A stretch of DNA of 64,000 nucleotides. Origin: Nitrospirota bacterium. Lineage in GTDB: Bacteria; Nitrospirota; Thermodesulfovibrionia; Thermodesulfovibrionales; JdFR-85. Positions within the stretch are counted from its first letter, which is position 1. Each line of letters starts with the position of its first letter. The notes under the pieces were generated by a model. The model saw only the letters and a program-made list of their open reading frames with translations. It was not told the DNA's origin and did not search any database. This document shows, piece by piece, positions 3,732-12,655 of the stretch. The position numbers were made by a program, and so were the translations under genes. Where the stretch lies: NCBI GenBank assembly GCA_015492645.1, contig WGER01000052.1, positions 9,974 to 73,973 on the forward strand, written 5' to 3'.

Positions 3732-4362
3732 GCAACTCAAATCCATTATCAGAGAGGCTGCAGAAGAGACCCCTATCGAGGTTTCTGAGGAGACGCTTCA
3801 ACTGTTTGAGAGATACTTCAATGAGATAAAGAGGTTCTCCAGGGCATATTCCCTTACTTCACTCGATACAGAGGAGGAATTTGCGATAAAAGGTATCCTG
3901 GACAGTCTACTGTATTTGATCTTCTTCCCTTCCTCTGCGGAGAAGGTCCTTGATGTGGGCAGTGGGGCAGGGCTACCTGGCCTTGTAATTAAGATAGCAC
4001 GTCCTGATTTGAAGGTCCATCTCATGGAACCCTCCAGAAAAAAGGCTGCATTTCTGAGACATATAATAACAAAGCTCCATCTCAGGGATGTGGATGTGAT
4101 AGAAGACACAATTGAGTCGTACAGCAAGACCTCTCCGGAGTGGTACGATATTCTGCTCACAAGGGCACTTTTCAGTGTAGGGGAGTTTATAAAAAAGGGA
4201 TTTCCCTTATTAAAAGAGGGAGGAATATTAATCATGAGTAAGGGGCCAGGGTATGAAAGGGAATTGAAAAGGCTGAAGACAGACAGACCTGTAGAGGTAC
4301 ATCCAGTGAGACTCCCAGTTGTTGGACTTCAGAGGTACTTTCTGATAGTACAAAATAATTAA
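3724..4362 (+). CDS. rsmG: 16S rRNA (guanine527-N7)-methyltransferase RsmG (GidB)
   Basis: 212-aa ORF with SAM-binding motif VLDVGSGAGLPGL and RsmG-like length. The start is a TTG at 3724 and is uncertain. Confidence 0.85.
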   Translation: MSKQLKSIIREAAEETPIEVSEETLQLFERYFNEIKRFSRAYSLTSLDTEEEFAIKGILDSLLYLIFFPSSAEKVLDVGSGAGLPGLVIKIARPDLKVHLMEPSRKKAAFLRHIITKLHLRDVDVIEDTIESYSKTSPEWYDILLTRALFSVGEFIKKGFPLLKEGGILIMSKGPGYERELKRLKTDRPVEVHPVRLPVVGLQRYFLIVQNN

Positions 4363-5588
4363 AACTCATATCTTATCTGAAGATAGAGATTGTCGTTTCT
4401 GTCGAGGCCTCCGAGCTGTCCCCATTCCTCCCCTCCTCCAAATACCATGGCACCGATGGAGGCCCAGATACGGTCAGAAAACCTGTATCTTATCTCTGGA
4501 TTGAGCAGGTAGTCTCCATCTGTGAGGCTCCAGAGGGAAAACCATCCGAGTTTCAGGTTCTGGTACATGAGCAACTGGGTGAGTCTTACCGCCAGGAGGT
4601 CAGAGTATCTCCTCGCCTCAGGCATTCCCTGAGGCAGGGTGCGGAGGTATTCAGAATAGTCATCCATATACTGTCCTGAGTACTGAATGGTGACAGTAAA
4701 GTCCCTCCAGAACTGCCTCTGATAGGTGAGAAGAAATCTGAGGGTGGAGTTCGGGATGAAGGGGTTGGTGCCAGCACGATCCTGCCTTGAGTCGTAATAG
4801 CCTGCCTCGATGCCTATCAGCCCGCCAAGTCCATTCAACTGCATAGAGGCACCGTACACATTGAGTTCAGGATAAAACAGGAGGAGGGATGTCCCCTCTG
4901 TCTTAACTGAGGGTGTCCTGTAAAAGCCCCTGTAGAGATAGAGCGCAATTTCAACTCCTGTGAGGTCCCTGTAAAACCTCAGGGCAAGTTCGGTGTTTTC
5001 AAGTGTTGCAGGTGGTTCCTCTTCCTTTATACCGGTCCCGCTAAGGGGATTGTAAAGGTGGAATCTTCTTGCTTCAGGCAGCCTGTTCGGTTCAAAAAAG
5101 GGTATTATGACAATATCCAGTGAGAAAGACTCAGGATAAACCCCTATCTTCAGGGCGTCCACCGGCCTTTTCATGTACTCCATGGGCCTGCCAGAGAAAA
5201 ATGCCTCATAGTCCTTCGGGAAGACGTCGTTAATAAAAACAAGGTCTCCGATCCCCCATGTGATTATCTGTCTTCCGGCCCTGAGGTCCCAGAGCATGGA
5301 TGAATAATCGATATAGGCCTCCCTGAACTCAACCTCTGCTTCTCTACAAATATGGTCATAATAGAGGTCTGTCTTTGAGAAGAACCTCAGGTCTGCTGAA
5401 AGGACCTCGATCTTCAGTTGCACCCTCTCCTCTGCCCATTTGAGGTCTCCACCGTCGGGATTACTGCCTGCCAGAGACATGGAATAATTGCCCTGCAGGA
5501 ACCCACCCAGAGAGAGGTCTATCTCCTCTGCTGTTGAGGTGAGTGGAGACAGCAGAATCAGGCACCCGATGATTAAAATCCTTAACAC
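4359..5588 (-). CDS. outer-membrane beta-barrel protein (porin-like), last gene of the sulfur/exporter cluster
   Basis: 409 aa with an N-terminal signal peptide (MLRILIIGCLILLSPLTSTA/EE) and an amphipathic beta-strand pattern. The C-terminal ...YLQIRYEF ends in Phe, a typical OMP signature. Its stop shares the palindromic TTAA with the convergent rsmG stop. Confidence 0.6.
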   Translation of the reverse strand: MLRILIIGCLILLSPLTSTAEEIDLSLGGFLQGNYSMSLAGSNPDGGDLKWAEERVQLKIEVLSADLRFFSKTDLYYDHICREAEVEFREAYIDYSSMLWDLRAGRQIITWGIGDLVFINDVFPKDYEAFFSGRPMEYMKRPVDALKIGVYPESFSLDIVIIPFFEPNRLPEARRFHLYNPLSGTGIKEEEPPATLENTELALRFYRDLTGVEIALYLYRGFYRTPSVKTEGTSLLLFYPELNVYGASMQLNGLGGLIGIEAGYYDSRQDRAGTNPFIPNSTLRFLLTYQRQFWRDFTVTIQYSGQYMDDYSEYLRTLPQGMPEARRYSDLLAVRLTQLLMYQNLKLGWFSLWSLTDGDYLLNPEIRYRFSDRIWASIGAMVFGGGEEWGQLGGLDRNDNLYLQIRYEF

Positions 5589-5604: not shown

Positions 5605-6390
5605 CTACCTCAGGAGACTTCTCGGAGGTCTCCGGAGGAACCTCTCTGTGAAGATGCCCTCTTCAAGTCCGATATTGTATTTGACCTCCTCGAAGGAGAC
5701 CTCTGTCCTGTGGCCGCTCTGGAGGTTTCTCATGGTCCTTCTCACCACTGTCGGGTAGCCCTGTATATTCTTTACCTCGTCAGCAGTGAATACCTTGTAG
5801 ACCTTACCGGTGTGGTTGTAGTACTCAATCTTAAGGGGGAGGTAGGTCTTCTCGGATATCCAGGAAATTCGATAGGAATAGGGCATATCCTCCTTCCTGG
5901 GGATGCTCTTTATCACAAGACAGTTCTCCCCTTTAAGGACCTCCTTTCTCAGGAGTTGGTGTTCGTCTTCATCAATATCCCTTCCGGAGACATCCTCATA
6001 GGTGAAGTCAGAACCCACAAAACTGGAGGCCCTGTCCCTTGCCGCAATCCTTTTGACCATATTAAGGGCAGGGATGAATAGCCATCGGTCATCGTCCCTG
6101 TCAGGGTACTTGTGGACCATAAAGGTCATACCCTTCACATCAGGTGGCTCATGAAAGTAGATGTAATAAAACTGTCTTCCACCATCCGTGACATCCCTTC
6201 TCAGCATCGTGAGGACCCTCCTTCTTTCGGCACCGGAAGATGAAATGAGACGCATTGTGACCTTCACCTTCATGTCATCCGCCTGATAGAGGAAGGCATT
6301 CTGTGACCTCCTCATGATCTCTTTTGCATCCTCGGAGTAGACATATGAAGACAGTGTGAGGACCATTAAAAGAACTACCAGGTGTTTCAT
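5605..6390 (-). CDS. LolA-like 'outer-membrane lipoprotein-sorting' family periplasmic protein
   Basis: 261 aa with a signal peptide (MKHLVVLLMVLTLSSYVYS). The FVGSDFTYEDV motif and size are typical of the LolA-fold partner of COG1033/MMPL exporters. ATGA overlap with the upstream MMPL stop. Confidence 0.75.
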   Translation of the reverse strand: MKHLVVLLMVLTLSSYVYSEDAKEIMRRSQNAFLYQADDMKVKVTMRLISSSGAERRRVLTMLRRDVTDGGRQFYYIYFHEPPDVKGMTFMVHKYPDRDDDRWLFIPALNMVKRIAARDRASSFVGSDFTYEDVSGRDIDEDEHQLLRKEVLKGENCLVIKSIPRKEDMPYSYRISWISEKTYLPLKIEYYNHTGKVYKVFTADEVKNIQGYPTVVRRTMRNLQSGHRTEVSFEEVKYNIGLEEGIFTERFLRRPPRSLLR

Positions 6391-8666
6391 GATTGACCTC
6401 CCCTGAAGAGTCTTTCCCTGAAGGTGACAATGAGTGCAGGCAGGAAGAAGAGTGTCGTCATGCCTGCAAAAAATGCAAGTGAACCGAAGAACAGCCCCAC
6501 AGTGACATAGGGGGTGAGGGTGGAGAGGACCAAGGGCAGAAATCCCAGTCCTACAACAATGGCGTTTCTGGCTATTGCCACAGAAGGCTCACCCTTTGTG
6601 ACCCACTGGATGGCCTGGTGGAAATCACCCCTCTGTTTCAGACCTCCCCTCAATCGCTGGCAGAAGTGTATGGCAAAGTCGATGCCAAGGCCAAGGGTGA
6701 GGGTTGAGCATACAGCAATCGGCATATCATAGTCTTTACCACCAAAACCTATCAGGCCGTAACTGAAGATTATGGAAAAACTGAGGGGCAGTATCGCCAC
6801 AACTGCCCACCAGACGGACCTGAATAGAACCACGAGCAACAGAAAGACCACCCAGTAGGAACCCACGGTAGCCTTTAGCATACCCTTTACCATCATATCC
6901 TGCCAGATGATGTTCAGATAGGGCAGTCCAGACCATTTCATTGTTATCCCTTCTGGCAGGGGGTTTTCCTCCACGAACTCCTCTACTGCCTTTACTACAG
7001 CAGACATGTCGCGATTGTCCCCTGAACGCATCTGGACCCAGAGGTTCGCCTTACGATAATCGTAGGTCACGAGGTTGTCCAGTTCATCAGGATCAGAGGA
7101 CATGAGGAAGAGGAAGAGGTACTGTCCAATGGTTCTTCTGTCATCAGGTATACTCTCAAATTGTGGATCCCCATCGTGCAGGACATAGTTTATCCTCTTA
7201 ACAACATCGGCCACTGAGGTGGTCTTTCCAACAAGATGATGACTCTCGAGATACCTCTGAAGGGAGTCAATGTATTTGAGGACCTCTGGAGATTTCATCC
7301 TCTCTGATTCGTTGCTCTCAAATACGAGATAAGAGATGTAGGTGCCTCCAATAATCCTGTTCAACACCCTGTCTGCCACTCTCAGGGGATGGTGTTCCTT
7401 GAACCACTTTACCGGGTTGTCGTTGACCCTTAACCGAAGGATCCCAAAGATTGCCACCAGAAGCAGAACCACTCCAATAACCACAACCGCCTTCCCCTTT
7501 GCAAGGGATACATCGGCCATCAGCGCAAGGACCCTGCTCCTGGAGGTCTTTGTTTCAATCCCCTTCAGACTCCTCTCTTTCAACAGGACCAGAAAGGCAG
7601 GGATGAAGGTTATGGTAAGGAGCCACGCAGCCATCACGCCAAAGGCCACAAAGAGACCGAATACCCTTACAGGTGGAATCTTTGCCCAGGCGAGGTTTGC
7701 AAATCCGACTGCGGTGGTCAGTGATGTGTAGAGCATGGGCTTGAAGAGTGAAGTGTAGACATCCTTTATAACAGAGTCTCTGTCATGTCCACGGTAGTTT
7801 TCATAGAAGTCACTTAATACATGCACACTATCACAGACAGCGATGGGCATGAGAAACACCGGTATCATTGAGGACATGATGTGTACCTTCAGTCCGAGCC
7901 ATATCATCGCCCCCATACTCCAGAGAACTGACAGCATGGCGACCACCATTGCTGGTACCACAAGCAGTACCCTCCGAAACAACAACCAGAGGAGGAGCAT
8001 CAGAAGGCCACCTGCCAGTGGTGCAACTACAGCCATCTCCTTGAACATCTCTGCACCGAAGGTATCTTCTGCAAGTGGAAGCCCTGCCATATAGAACCTT
8101 TCAGGGCCTTCCAGGGGCCTGTAGAGTTTCTTGATCCTTTCTGCCACCTCATGGGCTACATCCTTGTCCACAATGGGCACGTATATGGCAGTGCCTTTGC
8201 CATCAGAGGATACCAGTCTGTCCCTGAAGAGTGGATTGTCCATCACCTCTTTCTTGAGGAGGACAATCTCCTCTTCTTTTGAGGGGACCCTTTCAAGGGG
8301 CGGCCTTACCTCAAGGAGTCCTGCCCTGGATATCACATTGTTCGTTGCAGACAGACTCATTACATCCTCTGCAACCACTCCTTCTATTGTCATTATCTCA
8401 TCTGTAAGGGTCTTGATCTTTCTGAGGCTCCCTTTATTGAATATCCCCCTCTCATTGACCATACCAAGGACGATCATCTCCTCTATCCCGAACTCCTTTT
8501 TCACCTGTCTGTGGAATACCCTGACAGGTTCGTCCTGTGAGAGCATGTTTTCAGGGTCAGTGTCTATCTTCATTGTCGGCATGGATGAGACAAGAAGGAT
8601 GGTAAGGAAGATGGTGAGGGCAATCGTCAGTTTTGGATATCTGAGGGCCAGTCTTACAAGGCTCAT
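6387..8666 (-). CDS. MMPL/RND-superfamily exporter (COG1033-type, HpnN-like topology)
   Basis: 759 aa. Two repeats, each a large soluble loop followed by a cluster of hydrophobic helices, about 12 TM in total. The SD GAGGAG lies in the 8-nt spacer after the sqr-like stop. Confidence 0.85.
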   Translation of the reverse strand: MSLVRLALRYPKLTIALTIFLTILLVSSMPTMKIDTDPENMLSQDEPVRVFHRQVKKEFGIEEMIVLGMVNERGIFNKGSLRKIKTLTDEIMTIEGVVAEDVMSLSATNNVISRAGLLEVRPPLERVPSKEEEIVLLKKEVMDNPLFRDRLVSSDGKGTAIYVPIVDKDVAHEVAERIKKLYRPLEGPERFYMAGLPLAEDTFGAEMFKEMAVVAPLAGGLLMLLLWLLFRRVLLVVPAMVVAMLSVLWSMGAMIWLGLKVHIMSSMIPVFLMPIAVCDSVHVLSDFYENYRGHDRDSVIKDVYTSLFKPMLYTSLTTAVGFANLAWAKIPPVRVFGLFVAFGVMAAWLLTITFIPAFLVLLKERSLKGIETKTSRSRVLALMADVSLAKGKAVVVIGVVLLLVAIFGILRLRVNDNPVKWFKEHHPLRVADRVLNRIIGGTYISYLVFESNESERMKSPEVLKYIDSLQRYLESHHLVGKTTSVADVVKRINYVLHDGDPQFESIPDDRRTIGQYLFLFLMSSDPDELDNLVTYDYRKANLWVQMRSGDNRDMSAVVKAVEEFVEENPLPEGITMKWSGLPYLNIIWQDMMVKGMLKATVGSYWVVFLLLVVLFRSVWWAVVAILPLSFSIIFSYGLIGFGGKDYDMPIAVCSTLTLGLGIDFAIHFCQRLRGGLKQRGDFHQAIQWVTKGEPSVAIARNAIVVGLGFLPLVLSTLTPYVTVGLFFGSLAFFAGMTTLFFLPALIVTFRERLFRGGQS

Positions 8667-8674
8667 TGCTCCTC

Positions 8675-9868
8675 CTATGGCAGTTGCGTCAGGCCATGTC
8701 TGATCTTCCAGAGGTAATACCTCTCAAAGGCCGCCTTGAGCCATCGATACTGGATGCCTGCCTTGAGAAGGGCCTTCTGTCTTGGTGGAACCACTGGCTT
8801 TGCAACCATCAATGCAGCCGTGTTGCCCATGTCCATGAGACATACAGCACCGAGGGGTTCCGGTTCAGGAGGGCTCTTTCCGAGGACCTCTGAGGCTATC
8901 GTCTTTGCCGCCACCTTTGCCATCTCCACTGTCATATAGCCCGTCTTTGGCAGACCTGTGGGCACGGGTGTCTTCTCCGGAGGTGCCATTGCTACAGCCA
9001 CTCCAACTGAGAAGATATTTTTATGCACTATGTGCCTGTAATGCTGGTCAACCGGTATAAAGCCCTTTTCATTGCCGAGGTGGGCCACAGCCTTCACCCC
9101 TGCCATCGGAGGTGCAAACATGGCCAGCCTGAAGGGTAACCTTGTGCCGTCCTTGAGCCTCACCTCCTCCGGGGTGAACTCCTCAACCGCAACATTCGGT
9201 ATCGCCTTGATATCTCTGGCGGCAAACTCATCCTCCATGATCCGTCTTGATCTGCCGAGCCCTCCGATGCCGAAGTGGCCAATATAGGGTTCAGAGGTTA
9301 TGAATATGATGGGGACTTTATGCCTCATTTTTCTCCTCCTGAGTTCTGCATCCACCTCAAAGGCATACTCGTAGGGAGGACCAAAACAACTCACCCCCTG
9401 CACAGAGCCCACCAGCAATGGGCCGGGTTCTTCAAGGAACCTCTGCCATGCCTTATGACACCTGATCGCCTGCTCAAGGGTAAAGATACATTCTGTGTGG
9501 CCCTTCTCAGGTCCAAACCCTGGTACAGCATCAAAGACAAGGGCAGGGCCCGTGGCGATAACCAGATAATCGTAACCAATCTCTGTGCCATCCCTGAGTG
9601 CCACCCTCGATGAGTCAGGATCAACACCTACTGCCTCCTGATTTACAAATCCTATCCCCCTCTTCCTCAATATCCCTTCAAGGGGAAGGGTTATCTCCTC
9701 TGGCCTCTTCCATCCCATCGAAACCCATGGCAGGGAGGGGATAAAGACAAACCTGTTCTGGTCGCACACAACGGTTATATCTGCCCCCTGTCCAAGGTGT
9801 CTGCGGAGTTCAAAGGCAGTGGTAAGCCCTCCAAAGGACCCCCCGAGGATCACAACCCTGGTTGCCAT
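8675..9868 (-). CDS. sqr: sulfide:quinone oxidoreductase-like FAD-dependent pyridine nucleotide-disulfide oxidoreductase
   Basis: 397 aa. N-terminal Rossmann motif VVILGGSFGG. Cys residues in GVSCFGPPYE and GAVCLMDMG sit near the positions of the conserved SQR redox cysteines (about 160 and 356). Confidence 0.8.
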   Translation of the reverse strand: MATRVVILGGSFGGLTTAFELRRHLGQGADITVVCDQNRFVFIPSLPWVSMGWKRPEEITLPLEGILRKRGIGFVNQEAVGVDPDSSRVALRDGTEIGYDYLVIATGPALVFDAVPGFGPEKGHTECIFTLEQAIRCHKAWQRFLEEPGPLLVGSVQGVSCFGPPYEYAFEVDAELRRRKMRHKVPIIFITSEPYIGHFGIGGLGRSRRIMEDEFAARDIKAIPNVAVEEFTPEEVRLKDGTRLPFRLAMFAPPMAGVKAVAHLGNEKGFIPVDQHYRHIVHKNIFSVGVAVAMAPPEKTPVPTGLPKTGYMTVEMAKVAAKTIASEVLGKSPPEPEPLGAVCLMDMGNTAALMVAKPVVPPRQKALLKAGIQYRWLKAAFERYYLWKIRHGLTQLP

Positions 9869-9896: not shown

Positions 9897-10178
9897 TTAG
9901 AACAGGCCCACAACCTGATCCTCGTCCACCATCAGGTCAACCAGATCCATATAGTCTATCTCTTTTATATCCCTGGCGATATCAGCCTCTTTTAACCCCC
10001 TCATACGGGCATCTTCTCTAAGTAGATAGACTGTGCCACAGAAGCCTTCAAGCCTTTCTGGTTGTGCAAAATACACACCGTTCTGTAGCAGGCATATATC
10101 AGCAGCCATATCCCTTGCGAGTTTGAACCCCCTCCTGCCTTCAGGCGTATCAGGTGCGCTCTTTATAAGTACCAGCAT
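9897..10178 (-). CDS. dsrH: DsrH/TusB-like sulfur-relay protein
   Basis: 93 aa. Motifs LLQNGV, VYLLREDARMRGL and IDYMDLVDL...VVGLF parallel E. coli TusB (LLQDGV, VYALNEDLIARGL, IDYTDFV). Stop-SD-start junction with dsrF (TGA GGAGGT CAGA ATG). Confidence 0.75.
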   Translation of the reverse strand: MLVLIKSAPDTPEGRRGFKLARDMAADICLLQNGVYFAQPERLEGFCGTVYLLREDARMRGLKEADIARDIKEIDYMDLVDLMVDEDQVVGLF

Positions 10179-10188
10179 TCTGACCTCC

Positions 10189-10542
10189 TCAGAATATCAT
10201 TACGGTATCAGAGTCTTTGATAATCTCTGCGACCTCGTAACTGTTGGCGATGCTAACGCCTTCAATCAACTCCTCTGTCTCCAGGTGTTCCTCCTTCATT
10301 GAGGACTTATCCACCACCACCTCTACCCCCATCTCTATACAGTCCCTTATCCCATTTTCGATACTCTGATACTCCGTTCCCTCAACATCCTGCCCTTTCC
10401 TGGCTGCCTGAATACCTCCATCCACCAGTACAAGCCTTACGGTCATATCCTCCGTCACCCCTCCGAGGGCATGGCGGATCGCCTCTGCTGCATCTACAGT
10501 CCCGTAGGGAGGTCGCCTCAGTATTATGCTTATACTTCCCAT
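10189..10542 (-). CDS. dsrF: DsrF/TusC-like sulfur-relay protein
   Basis: 117 aa. PPYGT...EA..HALGG, LVLVDGGI and the C-terminal ...DTVMIF are typical of the DsrF/TusC family. It is preceded by TAA AGGAGGG CACC ATG, where TAA is the stop of the read-through dsrE frame. Confidence 0.75.
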   Translation of the reverse strand: MGSISIILRRPPYGTVDAAEAIRHALGGVTEDMTVRLVLVDGGIQAARKGQDVEGTEYQSIENGIRDCIEMGVEVVVDKSSMKEEHLETEELIEGVSIANSYEVAEIIKDSDTVMIF

Positions 10543-10553
10543 GGTGCCCTCCT

Positions 10554-10895
10554 TTATGTACCAAAGTTTAAAAAGATGGGCCCTGTCTTGATCACATTGT
10601 AAAGTCCTTTAAGGGAACTCATCTCACCTGCCAGGGCGTCCTCAGCCGCAAGACCGCGGCTCTTCATGCATCCAGTTCATATGTCAACCTTGAGTCCCCT
10701 TGATACAAGGTCCTCCAGGGCCTCTTCTGACTGAGGGACCTGACCCTTTACAATGGTGAACACACCGTCTCCTGACGCCACGAGCCTCACCCTGTGTCCC
10801 TTTTTCAGGGCAGCATCAGCCAGTTTAATAATGGTGTGAGTATTCTCGAAACTATAGGGAGTGGTTGTCAGAAACATTACAATCTCCCTTTCCAT
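10554..10895 (-). CDS. dsrE: DsrE/TusD-like sulfurtransferase, predicted selenoprotein (UGA at 10679-10677 read as Sec; U-x-x-C)
   Basis: Start ATG at 10895 with SD GGGGGAGGTG 4 nt upstream. The ORF-track product stops at TGA 10677-10679, but the frame stays open for 40 more codons to TAA 10554-10556. The read-through protein (113 aa) contains ...KVDI-U-TGCMKSRGL..., which aligns with the TusD/DsrE active-site box (NICVAAALRRGV). A SECIS-like hairpin lies 15 nt downstream of the UGA. Confidence 0.7.
10644..10661 (-). promoter_or_regulatory. candidate bacterial SECIS hairpin (AGCCGC-GGUCUU-GCGGCU)
   Basis: Perfect 6-bp stem with a GGUCUU loop, starting 15 nt 3' of the in-frame UGA. The GGUCU loop resembles the E. 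coli fdhF SECIS apical loop. Confidence 0.55.
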
Positions 10896-10927
10896 GAGAC
10901 ACCTCCCCCAAGAAAATTTCAAGAAGG

Positions 10928-11269
10928 TCAATGCCTTCTTTTACCGGGATATCTTCCCTTCTTGGTAACAGGACAGCAGGCAGGTGGTGGAAGTTGCTCT
11001 GGATAATCTCTCTTCAATACATGCAGAAGATCTGGTATAATTGGGTCCACAAGGTAATAGCACCTGAGCCGTCCATCCATGTAATAATCTATTAGACCGT
11101 AACGCCTTAACAGTGAGAGATGCTGTGATACGTTGGACTGCGGTATCTCCAAGAACTCCTCCAGATCGCTCACACACTTCACACCCTTTGTGAGTTCCTC
11201 AAGTATCTGGAGCCTCACTGGATGGCCCAGCACCCTGAGAAGTTCTGCCTGCGCACCTAATGGTCTCAT
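10928..11269 (-). CDS. ArsR/SmtB-family transcriptional regulator (possible SqrR/BigR-like persulfide sensor)
   Basis: 113 aa with a winged-helix signature HPVRLQILEEL...VKCVSDLEEFLEIPQSNVSQHLSLLRRYGLI. Cysteines at 32, 70, 98 and 99. First gene of the sulfur cluster. Confidence 0.85.
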   Translation of the reverse strand: MRPLGAQAELLRVLGHPVRLQILEELTKGVKCVSDLEEFLEIPQSNVSQHLSLLRRYGLIDYYMDGRLRCYYLVDPIIPDLLHVLKRDYPEQLPPPACCPVTKKGRYPGKRRH

Positions 11270-11480: not shown

Positions 11481-11556
11481 GGGGCTGTAGCTCAGATGGG
11501 AGAGCGCGTGAATGGCATTCACGAGGTCGGGGGTTCGACTCCCCTCAGCTCCACCA
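11481..11556 (+). tRNA. tRNA-Ala (anticodon GGC), CCA encoded
   Basis: Hand-folded cloverleaf. Acceptor GGGGCUG/CAGCUCC contains the G3:U70 alanine identity pair. D arm GCUC-AGAUGGGA-GAGC. Anticodon stem CGUGA/UCACG with loop AU-GGC-AU. T arm GGGGG-UUCGACU-CCCCU. 3' ACCA. Confidence 0.95.
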
Positions 11557-12655
11557 TCTCTCTGAATCTCCTGAACAGATGCCTTGAGTCATTGGGGCCT
11601 GGTCCCGCTTCAGGATGATATTGTACTGAAAAGATAGGTAACTCCACATGTCTCATCCCCTCTTCGGTTCCATCATACAGGTTTCTATGGGTCAAGACTA
11701 CCTGTCCCTTCAGACTTTCGATATCCACACAGTAATTATGGTTCTGAGAGGTGATCTCCACATGCCCTGTTTCCAGATCCATTACAGGGTGGTTTCCACC
11801 ATGATGGCCAAACTTTAGCTTGTATGTCCTGCCTCCCATGGCAAGTCCGAGTATCTGATGCCCTAAACAGATCCCGAACAGTGGTACCTTTCCGATGAGT
11901 CTCTTTGTGTTTTCAATTCCGTATCTCACCGCCTCGGGATTCCCTGGACCATTACTGAGAAGTACTCCATCCGGCTGTATCTCAAGTACTGCCTCTGCTG
12001 GGGTGGTGGCAGGCAGTACAGTCACCCTGAATCCAGCGTCCCTCAAACACCTGAGGATACTCAGTTTCACTCCAAAATCATATACCACCACATGGGGGGC
12101 CTCTATGCTGGTCTCTTCTGGTTCAGGCCACCTCCATAGCCCCTCAACCCAGTGAAAGGGGCTCTGGGTGGTCACCTCACTGACAAGATCCATCTCACCT
12201 ATGCCTGGATGGTCCTTTATCTTGCTGTAGAGACTCTCAACAGAAAGGTCTACAGTGGATAGTATACCCATCTGAGAACCAAAGGTCCTCAGATGCCTGG
12301 TAAGTGCTCTTGTGTCAATGCCCTGTATGGCGGGGATACCGTATTCCTTGAGATATTCTCCAAGGGGCCTTTCAGACCTCCAGTTGCTTGGATACTCCGT
12401 GTACTCCTTCACAATAAACCCTTCAACCTTCGGACCACCTCTTGACTCTATGTCCTCTTCATTCACCCCATAATTGCCTATCTCTGTATAGGTCATTACC
12501 ACCATCTGGCCCTTGTAGGAGGGGTCGGTCAGGATCTCCTGGTAGCCCGTGATGGAGGTGTTGAAGACAACTTCACCGATCCTCTCTCCCTCTGCTCCGA
12601 AGGACGTTCCCTCAAAGACAAGACCGTCCTGTAAAACAAGAATCGCTTTCTTCAT
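11519..12655 (-). CDS. carA: carbamoyl-phosphate synthase small (glutaminase) subunit
   Basis: 378 aa. N-terminus [21 protein letters not shown]...[24 protein letters not shown]. Glutamine amidotransferase triad region GICLGHQ. The last 38 nt run antisense through tRNA-Ala. Confidence 0.9.

Follow-up and report, generated by a model that had tools for sequence, protein, structure and literature searches.

An in-frame TGA in a Nitrospirota dsrE-like gene, part of a sulfide:quinone oxidoreductase operon, is probably a selenocysteine codon

The stretch of DNA analyzed here (64,000 nucleotides, hereafter the window) comes from a Nitrospirota bacterium of the Thermodesulfovibrionales (GenBank assembly GCA_015492645.1, contig WGER01000052.1, positions 9,974 to 73,973 of the forward strand). 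Its minus strand carries a dsrE-like gene whose frame contains a TGA triplet, and which a sequence-only reading, made without database searches, had taken to encode a selenoprotein, with selenocysteine (Sec) at the UGA and a hairpin resembling a selenocysteine insertion sequence (SECIS) behind it. The features of the gene are as follows.

10554..10895, minus strand: full-length coding sequence of the putative dsrE-like selenoprotein, 113 codons, the 73rd being UGA-Sec, followed by the TAA stop
10677..10679, minus strand: in-frame TGA, proposed Sec73 codon and first residue of U-T-G-C (from the translation and the homologue alignment)
10668..10670, minus strand: TGC for Cys76, second residue of U-x-x-C (invariant in the family alignment and the Cys-homologue alignment)
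10644..10661, minus strand: SECIS-like hairpin AGCCGC-GGUCUU-GCGGCU, spanning codons 79-84 (S-R-G-L-A-A) of the coding sequence
10902..10909, minus strand: Shine-Dalgarno sequence GGGGGAGG ahead of ATG 10895-10893 (read off the sequence)

The frame that opens at ATG 10895, the start methionine being common to the window gene and its homologues, reads ...SRGLKVDI as far as the TGA at 10679-10677 of the minus strand. Past this triplet, 40 further sense codons follow (U-TGCMKSRGLAAEDALAGEMSSLKGLYNVIKTGPIFLNFGT), ending at TAA 10556-10554, to which AGGAGGG-CACC-ATG of the next gene (ATG 10542) is directly attached. When the TGA is taken as the stop, a gap of 134 nt is left before ATG 10542; the other junctions of this string of genes measure ∼10–30 nt. 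All coordinates and sequences given in the sequence-only reading were borne out when the sequence was read again, including this gap, the open frame of 40 codons, and the succession of stop, Shine-Dalgarno sequence, and start. With a Cys put for the stop, the read-through product matches Pfam DsrE (PF02635) from profile position 3 to 116 of 116 (E = 8.6e-14; 52.1 bits compared with a gathering cut-off of 22.7). Only with read-through is the domain covered in full and, thus, the tail is needed to complete it. TGA is also the commonest ordinary stop of the window, where it ends 18 of the 38 long open reading frames (ORFs), which indicates that the genetic code is standard and that any recoding is local and site-specific; an alternative code, with UGA read as Trp or Gly, is ruled out by the same count. 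A scan of the window for other genes with an in-frame TGA yielded no convincing case.

That TGA is so frequent a stop, and that every gene caller ends the gene there, would equally suit a genuine stop, which leaves a 72-aa fragment or a pseudogene, followed by 134 nt of noncoding spacer with a regulatory or terminator-like hairpin. The conservation of the locus argues otherwise. Among 5.8 billion proteins searched, 256 homologues were found, the best 120 of which were examined; most of these 120 are calls of 72 aa, the others being slightly longer by way of alternative starts, with identities down to 76%, and they stem from Nitrospirota, Dissulfurispiraceae, Ca. Sulfobium, and Thermodesulfovibrionales. 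Among 41 loci from species-representative genomes, 34 (30 from Nitrospirota and four from Desulfobacteraceae/Desulfotignum) have TGA at exactly the same codon, together with a conserved open frame, and a scan of metagenomes with three close sequences as the query added 70 TGA-type and 12 Cys-type loci. The totals come to 108 TGA-type sequences (including the window and two contigs of its source population) and 15 Cys-type sequences. Whether homologues continue past VDI had been left as a check, and they do: 107 related loci, of Nitrospirota/Thermodesulfovibrionia and of some Desulfobacterota, have the same TGA and then the conserved frame, and the TGA forms of the latter phylum (L032, L036-38) are 31–36% identical to the window protein. 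When divergence was determined pairwise over 24 close homologues, the values for codon positions 1, 2, and 3 were 0.14, 0.07, and 0.58 before the TGA and 0.20, 0.085, and 0.55 after it, and the two other frames of the tail are full of stops. Judged by this pattern, the tail after the TGA evolves like coding sequence. A genuine stop would leave 40 codons with a coding substitution pattern, specifying a protein sequence conserved across two phyla, in a tail that has neither a start codon nor a Shine-Dalgarno sequence of its own.

Full-length homologues without any TGA exist as well. Those retrieved by profile are 117–118 aa long, and their aligned residue is invariably Cys, in the motif C-G-x-C; they are encoded by Nitrospirota (P0122, 43% identical), Coprothermobacter, the Thermotogota Kosmotoga, Fervidobacterium, and Mesotoga, as well as Dictyoglomus, Thermoanaerobacter, and Caldisericum. 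At the codon level, the aligned triplet is TGA in all 108 Sec-type sequences and TGT or TGC in the 15 Cys-type ones, and Cys at the UGA-equivalent residue, which the sequence-only reading had proposed to look for, was found both in these loci and in many database proteins, C-G-x-C in the place of U-x-x-C. That the Cys homologues are continuous is, again, at odds with a genuine stop. The family profile matches E. coli YchN (1jx7) over its full length (8e-12), with C-K-T-C aligned to U-T-G-C, A. vinosum DsrE (2hy5_A) at 1.5e-8, and E. coli TusD (2d1p_A) at 2.9e-4. In DsrE, the U/C column falls on ...DMVV-C-VAAAQRRGI, which is Cys78 of 2hy5_A (the residue number was counted by hand along the alignment). 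The earlier placement of the UGA at the active-site Cys78 of DsrE therefore stands by family-profile alignment, although the protein is not a DsrE/TusD equivalog (TIGR03012, 18.9 bits vs 89.25). Matches to designer pentatricopeptide proteins, which a phmmer search of the Protein Data Bank (PDB) also returned, were dismissed as repeat or compositional artifacts. An AlphaFold2 model of the Cys homologue P0122 (mean predicted local distance difference test score, pLDDT, 91.6) superimposes on YchN, DsrE, and TusD with template modeling (TM) scores of 0.87–0.88 (0.88 for 2hy5_A, at 24% identity). In the model, the Cys is situated at the end of strand 3 (residues 73–77), where helix 78–83 begins; by this model, a product ending at the UGA, i.e., one of 72 aa, would lack two helices and two of the five strands.

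The hairpin (10661-10644) has a perfect stem that starts 15 nt 3′ of the UGA, and its GGUC begins at +25 relative to the U of the UGA, compared with +22 in E. coli fdhF (TGA at codon 140); both the distance and the shift of 3 nt had been read correctly from the sequence alone. Taken by itself, the hairpin is only mildly unusual and constitutes weak evidence: 4.1% of the 2747 TGA trinucleotides in the window are followed by a perfect hairpin of at least 6 bp at +10 to +28, and only 0.36% by one that also has GGU in the loop. The comparative evidence is strong. All 39 TGA sequences listed have the stem in the same register, which the three Cys forms listed with them lack, and the loop of these TGA forms is GGUCU(U/G/A/C), or GUGC in one subclade (GUGC stands in place of GGUCUU in L029-31). 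When the register was scored on 85 unique 48-nt segments from the 108 TGA-type loci, 94.1% of the six core stem pairs were standard; pair 2 is G-C in 41 segments, C-G in 25, and U-A in 10, and pair 1 varies between A-U, G-U, U-A, and others. The 15 Cys-type genes are paired to 51%, which is background, have no GGUC loop, and encode the same R-G motif by other codons. Similarly, an alignment of 29 sequences, in which four from Desulfobacterota are out of register (5-nt loop), had 85.6% of its cells paired, compared with 72% in shuffles and 33–51% in slid registers, and four of the six pairs were changed on both sides. The compensatory changes alter amino acids in both arms (S79T with A84G; S to L with A to E), which argues that the region is translated and structured at the same time. 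Divergence at the third codon position is 0.156 in codons 79–84, as opposed to 0.55 elsewhere in the tail, which again points to an RNA structure overlaid on coding sequence.

Such covariation, changing residues on both arms, is not what a hairpin in a noncoding spacer would exhibit, nor does the hairpin have the U-tract of a terminator. The ordinary folding energy of the hairpin and the failure to find Sec machinery on the contig (see below) could be cited in favor of a genuine stop; together with the conserved coding tail, the incomplete fold of the 72-aa product, and the continuous Cys homologues, the evidence makes such a stop extremely improbable. The alternative, a UGA-recoded gene for a full-length DsrE-like protein whose translation depends on a SECIS, is held here with very high confidence. 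In such a gene, the GGUCUU hairpin, situated in the coding sequence 15 nt after the UGA, would be the bacterial SECIS that recruits SelB with Sec-tRNA(Sec).

Recoding of the UGA does not by itself specify the residue inserted. In some anaerobes, Sec-to-Cys recoding tRNAs have been reported. A tRNA charged with Cys but delivered in a SelB- and SECIS-dependent manner, or leaky near-cognate read-through, could thus decode the UGA, and a conserved UGA, a SECIS-like hairpin, and Cys homologues cannot separate Sec from Cys delivered by a SelB-like factor. Machinery genes, likewise, were not seen for the source genome, for which the search covered its 86.9-kb contig (ENA scaffold REYS20-1_SAMN12239314_METAG-scaffold_111, 86,884 bp, also contained in the metagenome-assembled genome [MAG] GCA_027053865.1). 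When E. coli SelA, SelB, and SelD were used as tblastn queries against the window and all loci, SelD alone was found, in L022, L103, L064, and L067; with ARAGORN, neither the window nor 38 loci yielded a tRNA-Sec, the tRNAs of the window being tRNA-Ala and tRNA-Ser only. In Nitrospirota, selC may overlap selB (PMC8124441). Two of the SelD genes lie beside operons of the same kind as that in the window. In L022 (Nitrospiraceae bacterium Ngb-4, whose DsrE is 77% identical to that of the window) and in L103, SelD next to the operon contains an in-frame TGA of its own (SSCAG-U-AAKF), from which relatives of the window organism can be recognized as users of Sec. An active-site TGA in SelD is classic and typical of true Sec users, which, in close relatives, argues against Cys as the inserted residue; moreover, the family has been published as a Sec family with UxxC, and leaky read-through would not select for a hairpin conserved at a fixed distance. 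Insertion of a residue other than Sec is therefore very improbable, and Sec is, by the sequences compared, highly likely.

The selenoprotein interpretation of the sequence-only reading is thus upheld by the conserved UGA with its coding tail, the Cys homologues, the alignment of the active site, and the covariation of the hairpin. Several points weigh against it. The published predictions for the family are computational. Neither selA, selB, selD, nor tRNA-Sec was found in the window or the remainder of the 86.9-kb source contig, and look-ups of SelD homologues did not locate the SelD of the source MAG, the three candidates all being from other samples. For its composition, the 50-nt segment has an ordinary folding energy (z = −0.19), which gives no support on its own, and the stem measures only 4–5 bp in a few homologues. 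Rfam, both in a gathering scan of the whole window and in a permissive one (E up to 10) of 10540-10720, returned no SECIS family, only noise, which says little either way because bacterial SECIS elements are short and gene specific. As regards function, the operon contains no TusA or DsrC gene, so the functional model is indirect, and the adjacency of SelD in four loci keeps a selenium-related role possible (see below). Taken as a whole, one gene at 10895-10554 of the minus strand, encoding a 113-aa protein of DsrE/YchN fold with UGA codon 73 decoded as Sec, is the best explanation of the locus and likely to be correct.

The gene is part of a cluster on the minus strand, the other members of which are the following.

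10928..11269, minus strand: ArsR/SmtB-family regulator, first gene of the conserved cluster (Pfam HTH_5, NCBIfam HTH_metalloreg)
10189..10542, minus strand: dsrF/tusC-like gene, 117 aa, without Cys at the active-site position (Pfam DsrE; TIGR03010 below cut-off)
9897..10178, minus strand: dsrH/tusB-like gene, 93 aa (Pfam DsrH)
8675..9868, minus strand: sulfide:quinone oxidoreductase (SQR), 397 aa (match to Aquifex aeolicus SQR 3hyv)
6387..8666, minus strand: MMPL/RND-type transporter, 759 aa, often closing the cluster (Pfam MMPL)

The order ArsR-dsrE(U)-dsrF-dsrH-SQR, often with MMPL added, is conserved across Nitrospirota loci. In nearly all related loci, the dsrF-like gene comes right after dsrE(U), and the position of the dsrH-like gene is conserved; wherever the flanks are long enough, the ArsR gene adjoins dsrE(U), and SQR follows dsrH, in most loci, and MMPL comes after SQR in a subset. 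SQR matches the Aquifex aeolicus enzyme (3hyv) over its full length with E = 5.8e-104, both catalytic Cys motifs being aligned, and that of Acidithiobacillus with E ∼1e-93. For the DsrH-like protein, the closest PDB entries are Thermotoga TM0979, TusB, and DsrH. Among the nearest structures of the ArsR regulator are the persulfide sensors SqrR and BigR. The regulator (10928-11269, and likewise its counterpart at 20-361 of L103) ends in a conserved Cys-Cys tail (...PACCPVTKKG...) and has Cys32 (KCVSD) and Cys80 (L[RK]CY) in addition; these residues possibly sense persulfide or metal, and they do not align in a simple way with the sensing cysteines of SqrR and BigR. Downstream of MMPL (6387-8666, minus strand), a DUF1329/TP_0789-like gene (5605-6390) and a DUF1302 gene (4359-5588) follow, and this MMPL-DUF1329-DUF1302 triad may be cotranscribed with the SQR operon. 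On the other side of the cluster, a tRNA-Ala(GGC) gene (11481-11556, plus strand) overlaps the 3′ (stop codon) end of a carA-like ORF (11519-12655, minus strand).

The surroundings of dsrE vary among the relatives. Four Cys-type operons of other Nitrospirota (L063, L065, L070, and L071) are organized as ArsR-dsrE(C)-dsrF-dsrH-SQR-like, followed by rhodanese, YeeE-family genes, and a molybdopterin oxidoreductase; YeeE-family genes are found near the Cys-type relatives L033, L063, and L071, and Coprothermobacter has yeeE-dsrE(C)-dsrF-dsrH. In Desulfotignum, dsrE(U)-dsrF-dsrH is encoded without SQR; at one such locus (L037, 3218-8879), a Cys-rich gene of the CCG type (HdrB/GlpC-like) precedes dsrE(U)FH, and a multiheme cytochrome of ∼508 aa with several CxxCH motifs comes after it. 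One genome (MAG binchicken_co172_141, CAZEYP01) has two paralogous Sec-type operons, L027 and L029. Compared with the window, ArsR (88%), SQR (76%), and MMPL (71%) of L029 show higher identities than its DsrE (49%), DsrF (44%), and DsrH (58%); the dsrEFH cassette thus seems, from these identities, to have been swapped between operon backbones.

We infer the actual Sec insertion, the formation of a complex, and the chemistry and partners of a sulfur relay as follows. Sec73, at the end of β-strand 3 and the start of the next helix, would occupy the position of the sulfur-accepting Cys78 of DsrE/TusD and form a U-x-x-C motif with Cys76. DsrE(U), together with the DsrF-like and DsrH-like proteins, would most likely assemble into a hetero-oligomer of the DsrEFH/TusBCD type, in which Sec73 is the single reactive residue. 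In an operon presumably under the control of ArsR, the type I-like SQR would produce sulfane sulfur (polysulfide or persulfide), which the selenolate of Sec73 could take over as an Se-S(n) adduct; this sulfur might then be handed to TusA/DsrC-type acceptors encoded elsewhere in the genome, or the adduct be resolved by Cys76. Overall, we lean toward the view that the protein serves as the subunit that accepts sulfur in a DsrEFH-like relay coupled to SQR.

A different function is conceivable for the same selenoprotein, namely, that the DsrE(U)FH/SQR-like module handles selenium instead of, or besides, sulfur. The genes for SelD suggest as much. In L064 and L067, selD immediately precedes a Cys-type dsrE-dsrF-dsrH trio, the genes being 10–30 nt apart; in L103, ArsR-dsrE(U)FH-SQR-TauE-selD(U)-TauE all lie on one strand; in L022, selD(U) is found 5 kb downstream. 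The Cys forms, furthermore, share C-G-x-C with the DsrE-like domain of the SelD-linked YedF (PMC5322559), and selD occurs next to the module more often than expected by chance. On closer inspection of these loci, L064 (3924-6116) has a Sec-type selD (LSHGAG-U-ACKIGP) with a LysR gene upstream, and selD is also ahead of the trio in L067 (19-1200), so that selD and the DsrEFH-like module look like one operon in both. The string in L103 (20-5912) consists of ArsR, dsrE(U), dsrF, dsrH, SQR, a TauE/SafE-like membrane protein, Sec-type selD, and a second TauE-like gene. Pairs of SelD and TauE recur in the Nitrospirota SelD loci L054-L062, and L058 has a gene of the DrsE_2 family after TauE. Against a role in selenium metabolism, SelD is nearby in only four of ∼120 loci, and selenoprotein genes frequently neighbor sel genes for unrelated reasons. 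The flavoprotein partner is closely related to bona fide SQR, the rhodanese, YeeE-family, and molybdopterin oxidoreductase genes of the Cys-type operons are typical sulfur genes, and the NCBIfam model for YedF (TIGR03527) gave no match at E up to 0.01. Handling of selenium by the module is, hence, considered unlikely, and a relay of sulfur remains our preferred function for the Sec-containing protein.

The TGA has left its mark on the databases. Well over 100 entries for this gene from Nitrospirota are 72-aa truncations, for instance P0025, P0026, P0027, P0030, P0036, P0042, P0053, P0088, P0089, and P0172, which are named “DsrE family protein” by NCBI and TusD or DsrF/TusC components by JGI. 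As the full-length product finds no match among the NCBIfam selenoprotein models, the misannotation is systematic. A 2024 survey stated that most Thermodesulfovibrionia “possess dsrFH, but no dsrE” (PMC11033732), and truncation of dsrE at the Sec codon is a likely explanation of that report, for which the gene described here is the candidate match. DsrEFH serves as a marker that separates sulfur oxidizers from sulfate reducers, and a truncated Sec-type dsrE mimics dsrFH without dsrE.

A related module has been described as DsrEFH type II, the divergent DsrE-like/Chp1/Chp2 trio of the YTD cluster (Plum-Jensen et al, 2026; PMC13293266; also PMC13047784). It relays sulfur from TusA to DsrC in vitro via Cys67 of the cable-bacterium DsrE, which aligns with Cys78 of A. 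vinosum DsrE, and occurs in 985 genomes, mainly of Desulfobacterota and Nitrospirota with reductive dsrAB; in 99.3% of cases, the functional cysteine is retained, and the paper makes no mention of selenium (PMC13293266). Truncation at the TGA may have hidden the present clade from this recent census. Whether the Sec-type gene is the missing dsrE of Thermodesulfovibrionia, that is, a Sec version of DsrEFH type II, can be proposed only tentatively. If it were, the SQR-linked ArsR operon would mark a route, based on Se-S chemistry, by which sulfane sulfur from sulfide enters the Dsr pathway of organisms that are counted among the sulfate reducers, and the Sec-type module would systematically escape surveys in which DsrEFH is the marker for sulfur oxidation. 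The repeated adjacency of selD also raises the possibility that selenium traffics through the module. Putative Sec at a position shown by mutagenesis to carry sulfur in DsrE-type proteins provides, together with the Cys forms, a natural Sec/Cys pair within the same type of operon, with which the contribution of selenium to a persulfide relay can be tested.

Among known systems, one of the closest is the “DsrE-like protein” family of selenoproteins (PF02635, UxxC), which was predicted in 2005 from Sargasso Sea reads (Zhang, Fomenko & Gladyshev; PMC1088965), later in Desulfovibrio vulgaris (Zhang et al, 2006; PMC1794560) and in the symbionts of Olavius (Zhang & Gladyshev, 2007; PMC1976440), and which is listed in reviews of 2022 and 2026 (PMC9312934 and PMC13188914, the latter with WP_014524487.1 as the representative). 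The statement, in the sequence-only reading, that “DsrE-like” is a predicted selenoprotein family is thereby confirmed (PMC1088965, PMC1794560, PMC1976440, PMC13188914). The window gene shares with this family PF02635, U-x-x-C (U73-T-G-C76), Cys homologues, and a hairpin of the bacterial SECIS type with G in the apical loop; it belongs to the published family and does not represent a new class. The published reports concern marine metagenome reads and Deltaproteobacteria, whereas the window is from Nitrospirota (the published representative was compared by description only). In the literature, no description was found of the Nitrospirota/Thermodesulfovibrionia clade, the dsrE(U)-dsrF-dsrH trio, or the ArsR/SQR operon for DsrE-like selenoproteins; the operon context is therefore useful and, so far as found, undescribed.

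With respect to fold, E. coli YchN (1jx7) is the closest solved relative, both by profile (8e-12) and by structure (TM 0.88), but it is encoded alone and was crystallized as a homo-oligomer, whereas the window gene is followed by DsrF-like and DsrH-like genes. The fold, the layout of three genes, and the Cys78 position are those of canonical DsrEFH of A. vinosum (2hy5) and TusBCD of E. coli (2d1p). However, the scores of the trio are below the equivalog cut-offs (TIGR03012, 18.9 vs 89.25; TIGR03010, 34.7 vs 94.15; TIGR03011, 43.2 vs 49.2 bits), by which its members do not qualify as equivalogs of TusD/DsrE, TusC/DsrF, and TusB/DsrH. Type I DsrE, moreover, has a single Cys rather than CxxC/UxxC, and the window gene is outside a dsr cluster or a tRNA-thiolation context. 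The hairpin resembles the SECIS of E. coli fdhF in the GGUC(U) apical loop and the short GC-rich stem just 3′ of the UGA and differs from it in having no bulged U, a shorter stem (6–8 bp), and other flanks.

Persulfide-responsive SQR operons with sulfurtransferase genes are represented by the cst operon of S. aureus, with the multidomain CstA, and by the SqrR/BigR regulons. Common to these and the window are a repressor of the ArsR/CsoR type, SQR, and a sulfurtransferase with a domain of the DsrE/TusA type. Unlike them, the window has no persulfide dioxygenase or rhodanese, the sulfur carrier would be a three-subunit DsrEFH-like complex with Sec, and the organism is an anaerobe.

DsrEFH type II, finally, likewise consists of three adjacent genes whose products have the DsrE/F/H fold but show little identity to canonical DsrEFH, has its active residue at the Cys78 position, and is matched in synteny by the YeeE-family genes that accompany the Cys-type relatives (L033, L063, and L071). 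It differs from the window trio in having Cys where Sec is predicted at the aligned position and in the second Cys (UxxC) of the latter; in addition, type II is usually syntenic with yeeE/yedE and tusA, whereas the neighbors in the window and in the Sec-type loci of Nitrospirota are ArsR and SQR. Likened by description and gene layout, DsrEFH type II is the closest functional analogue of the window trio.

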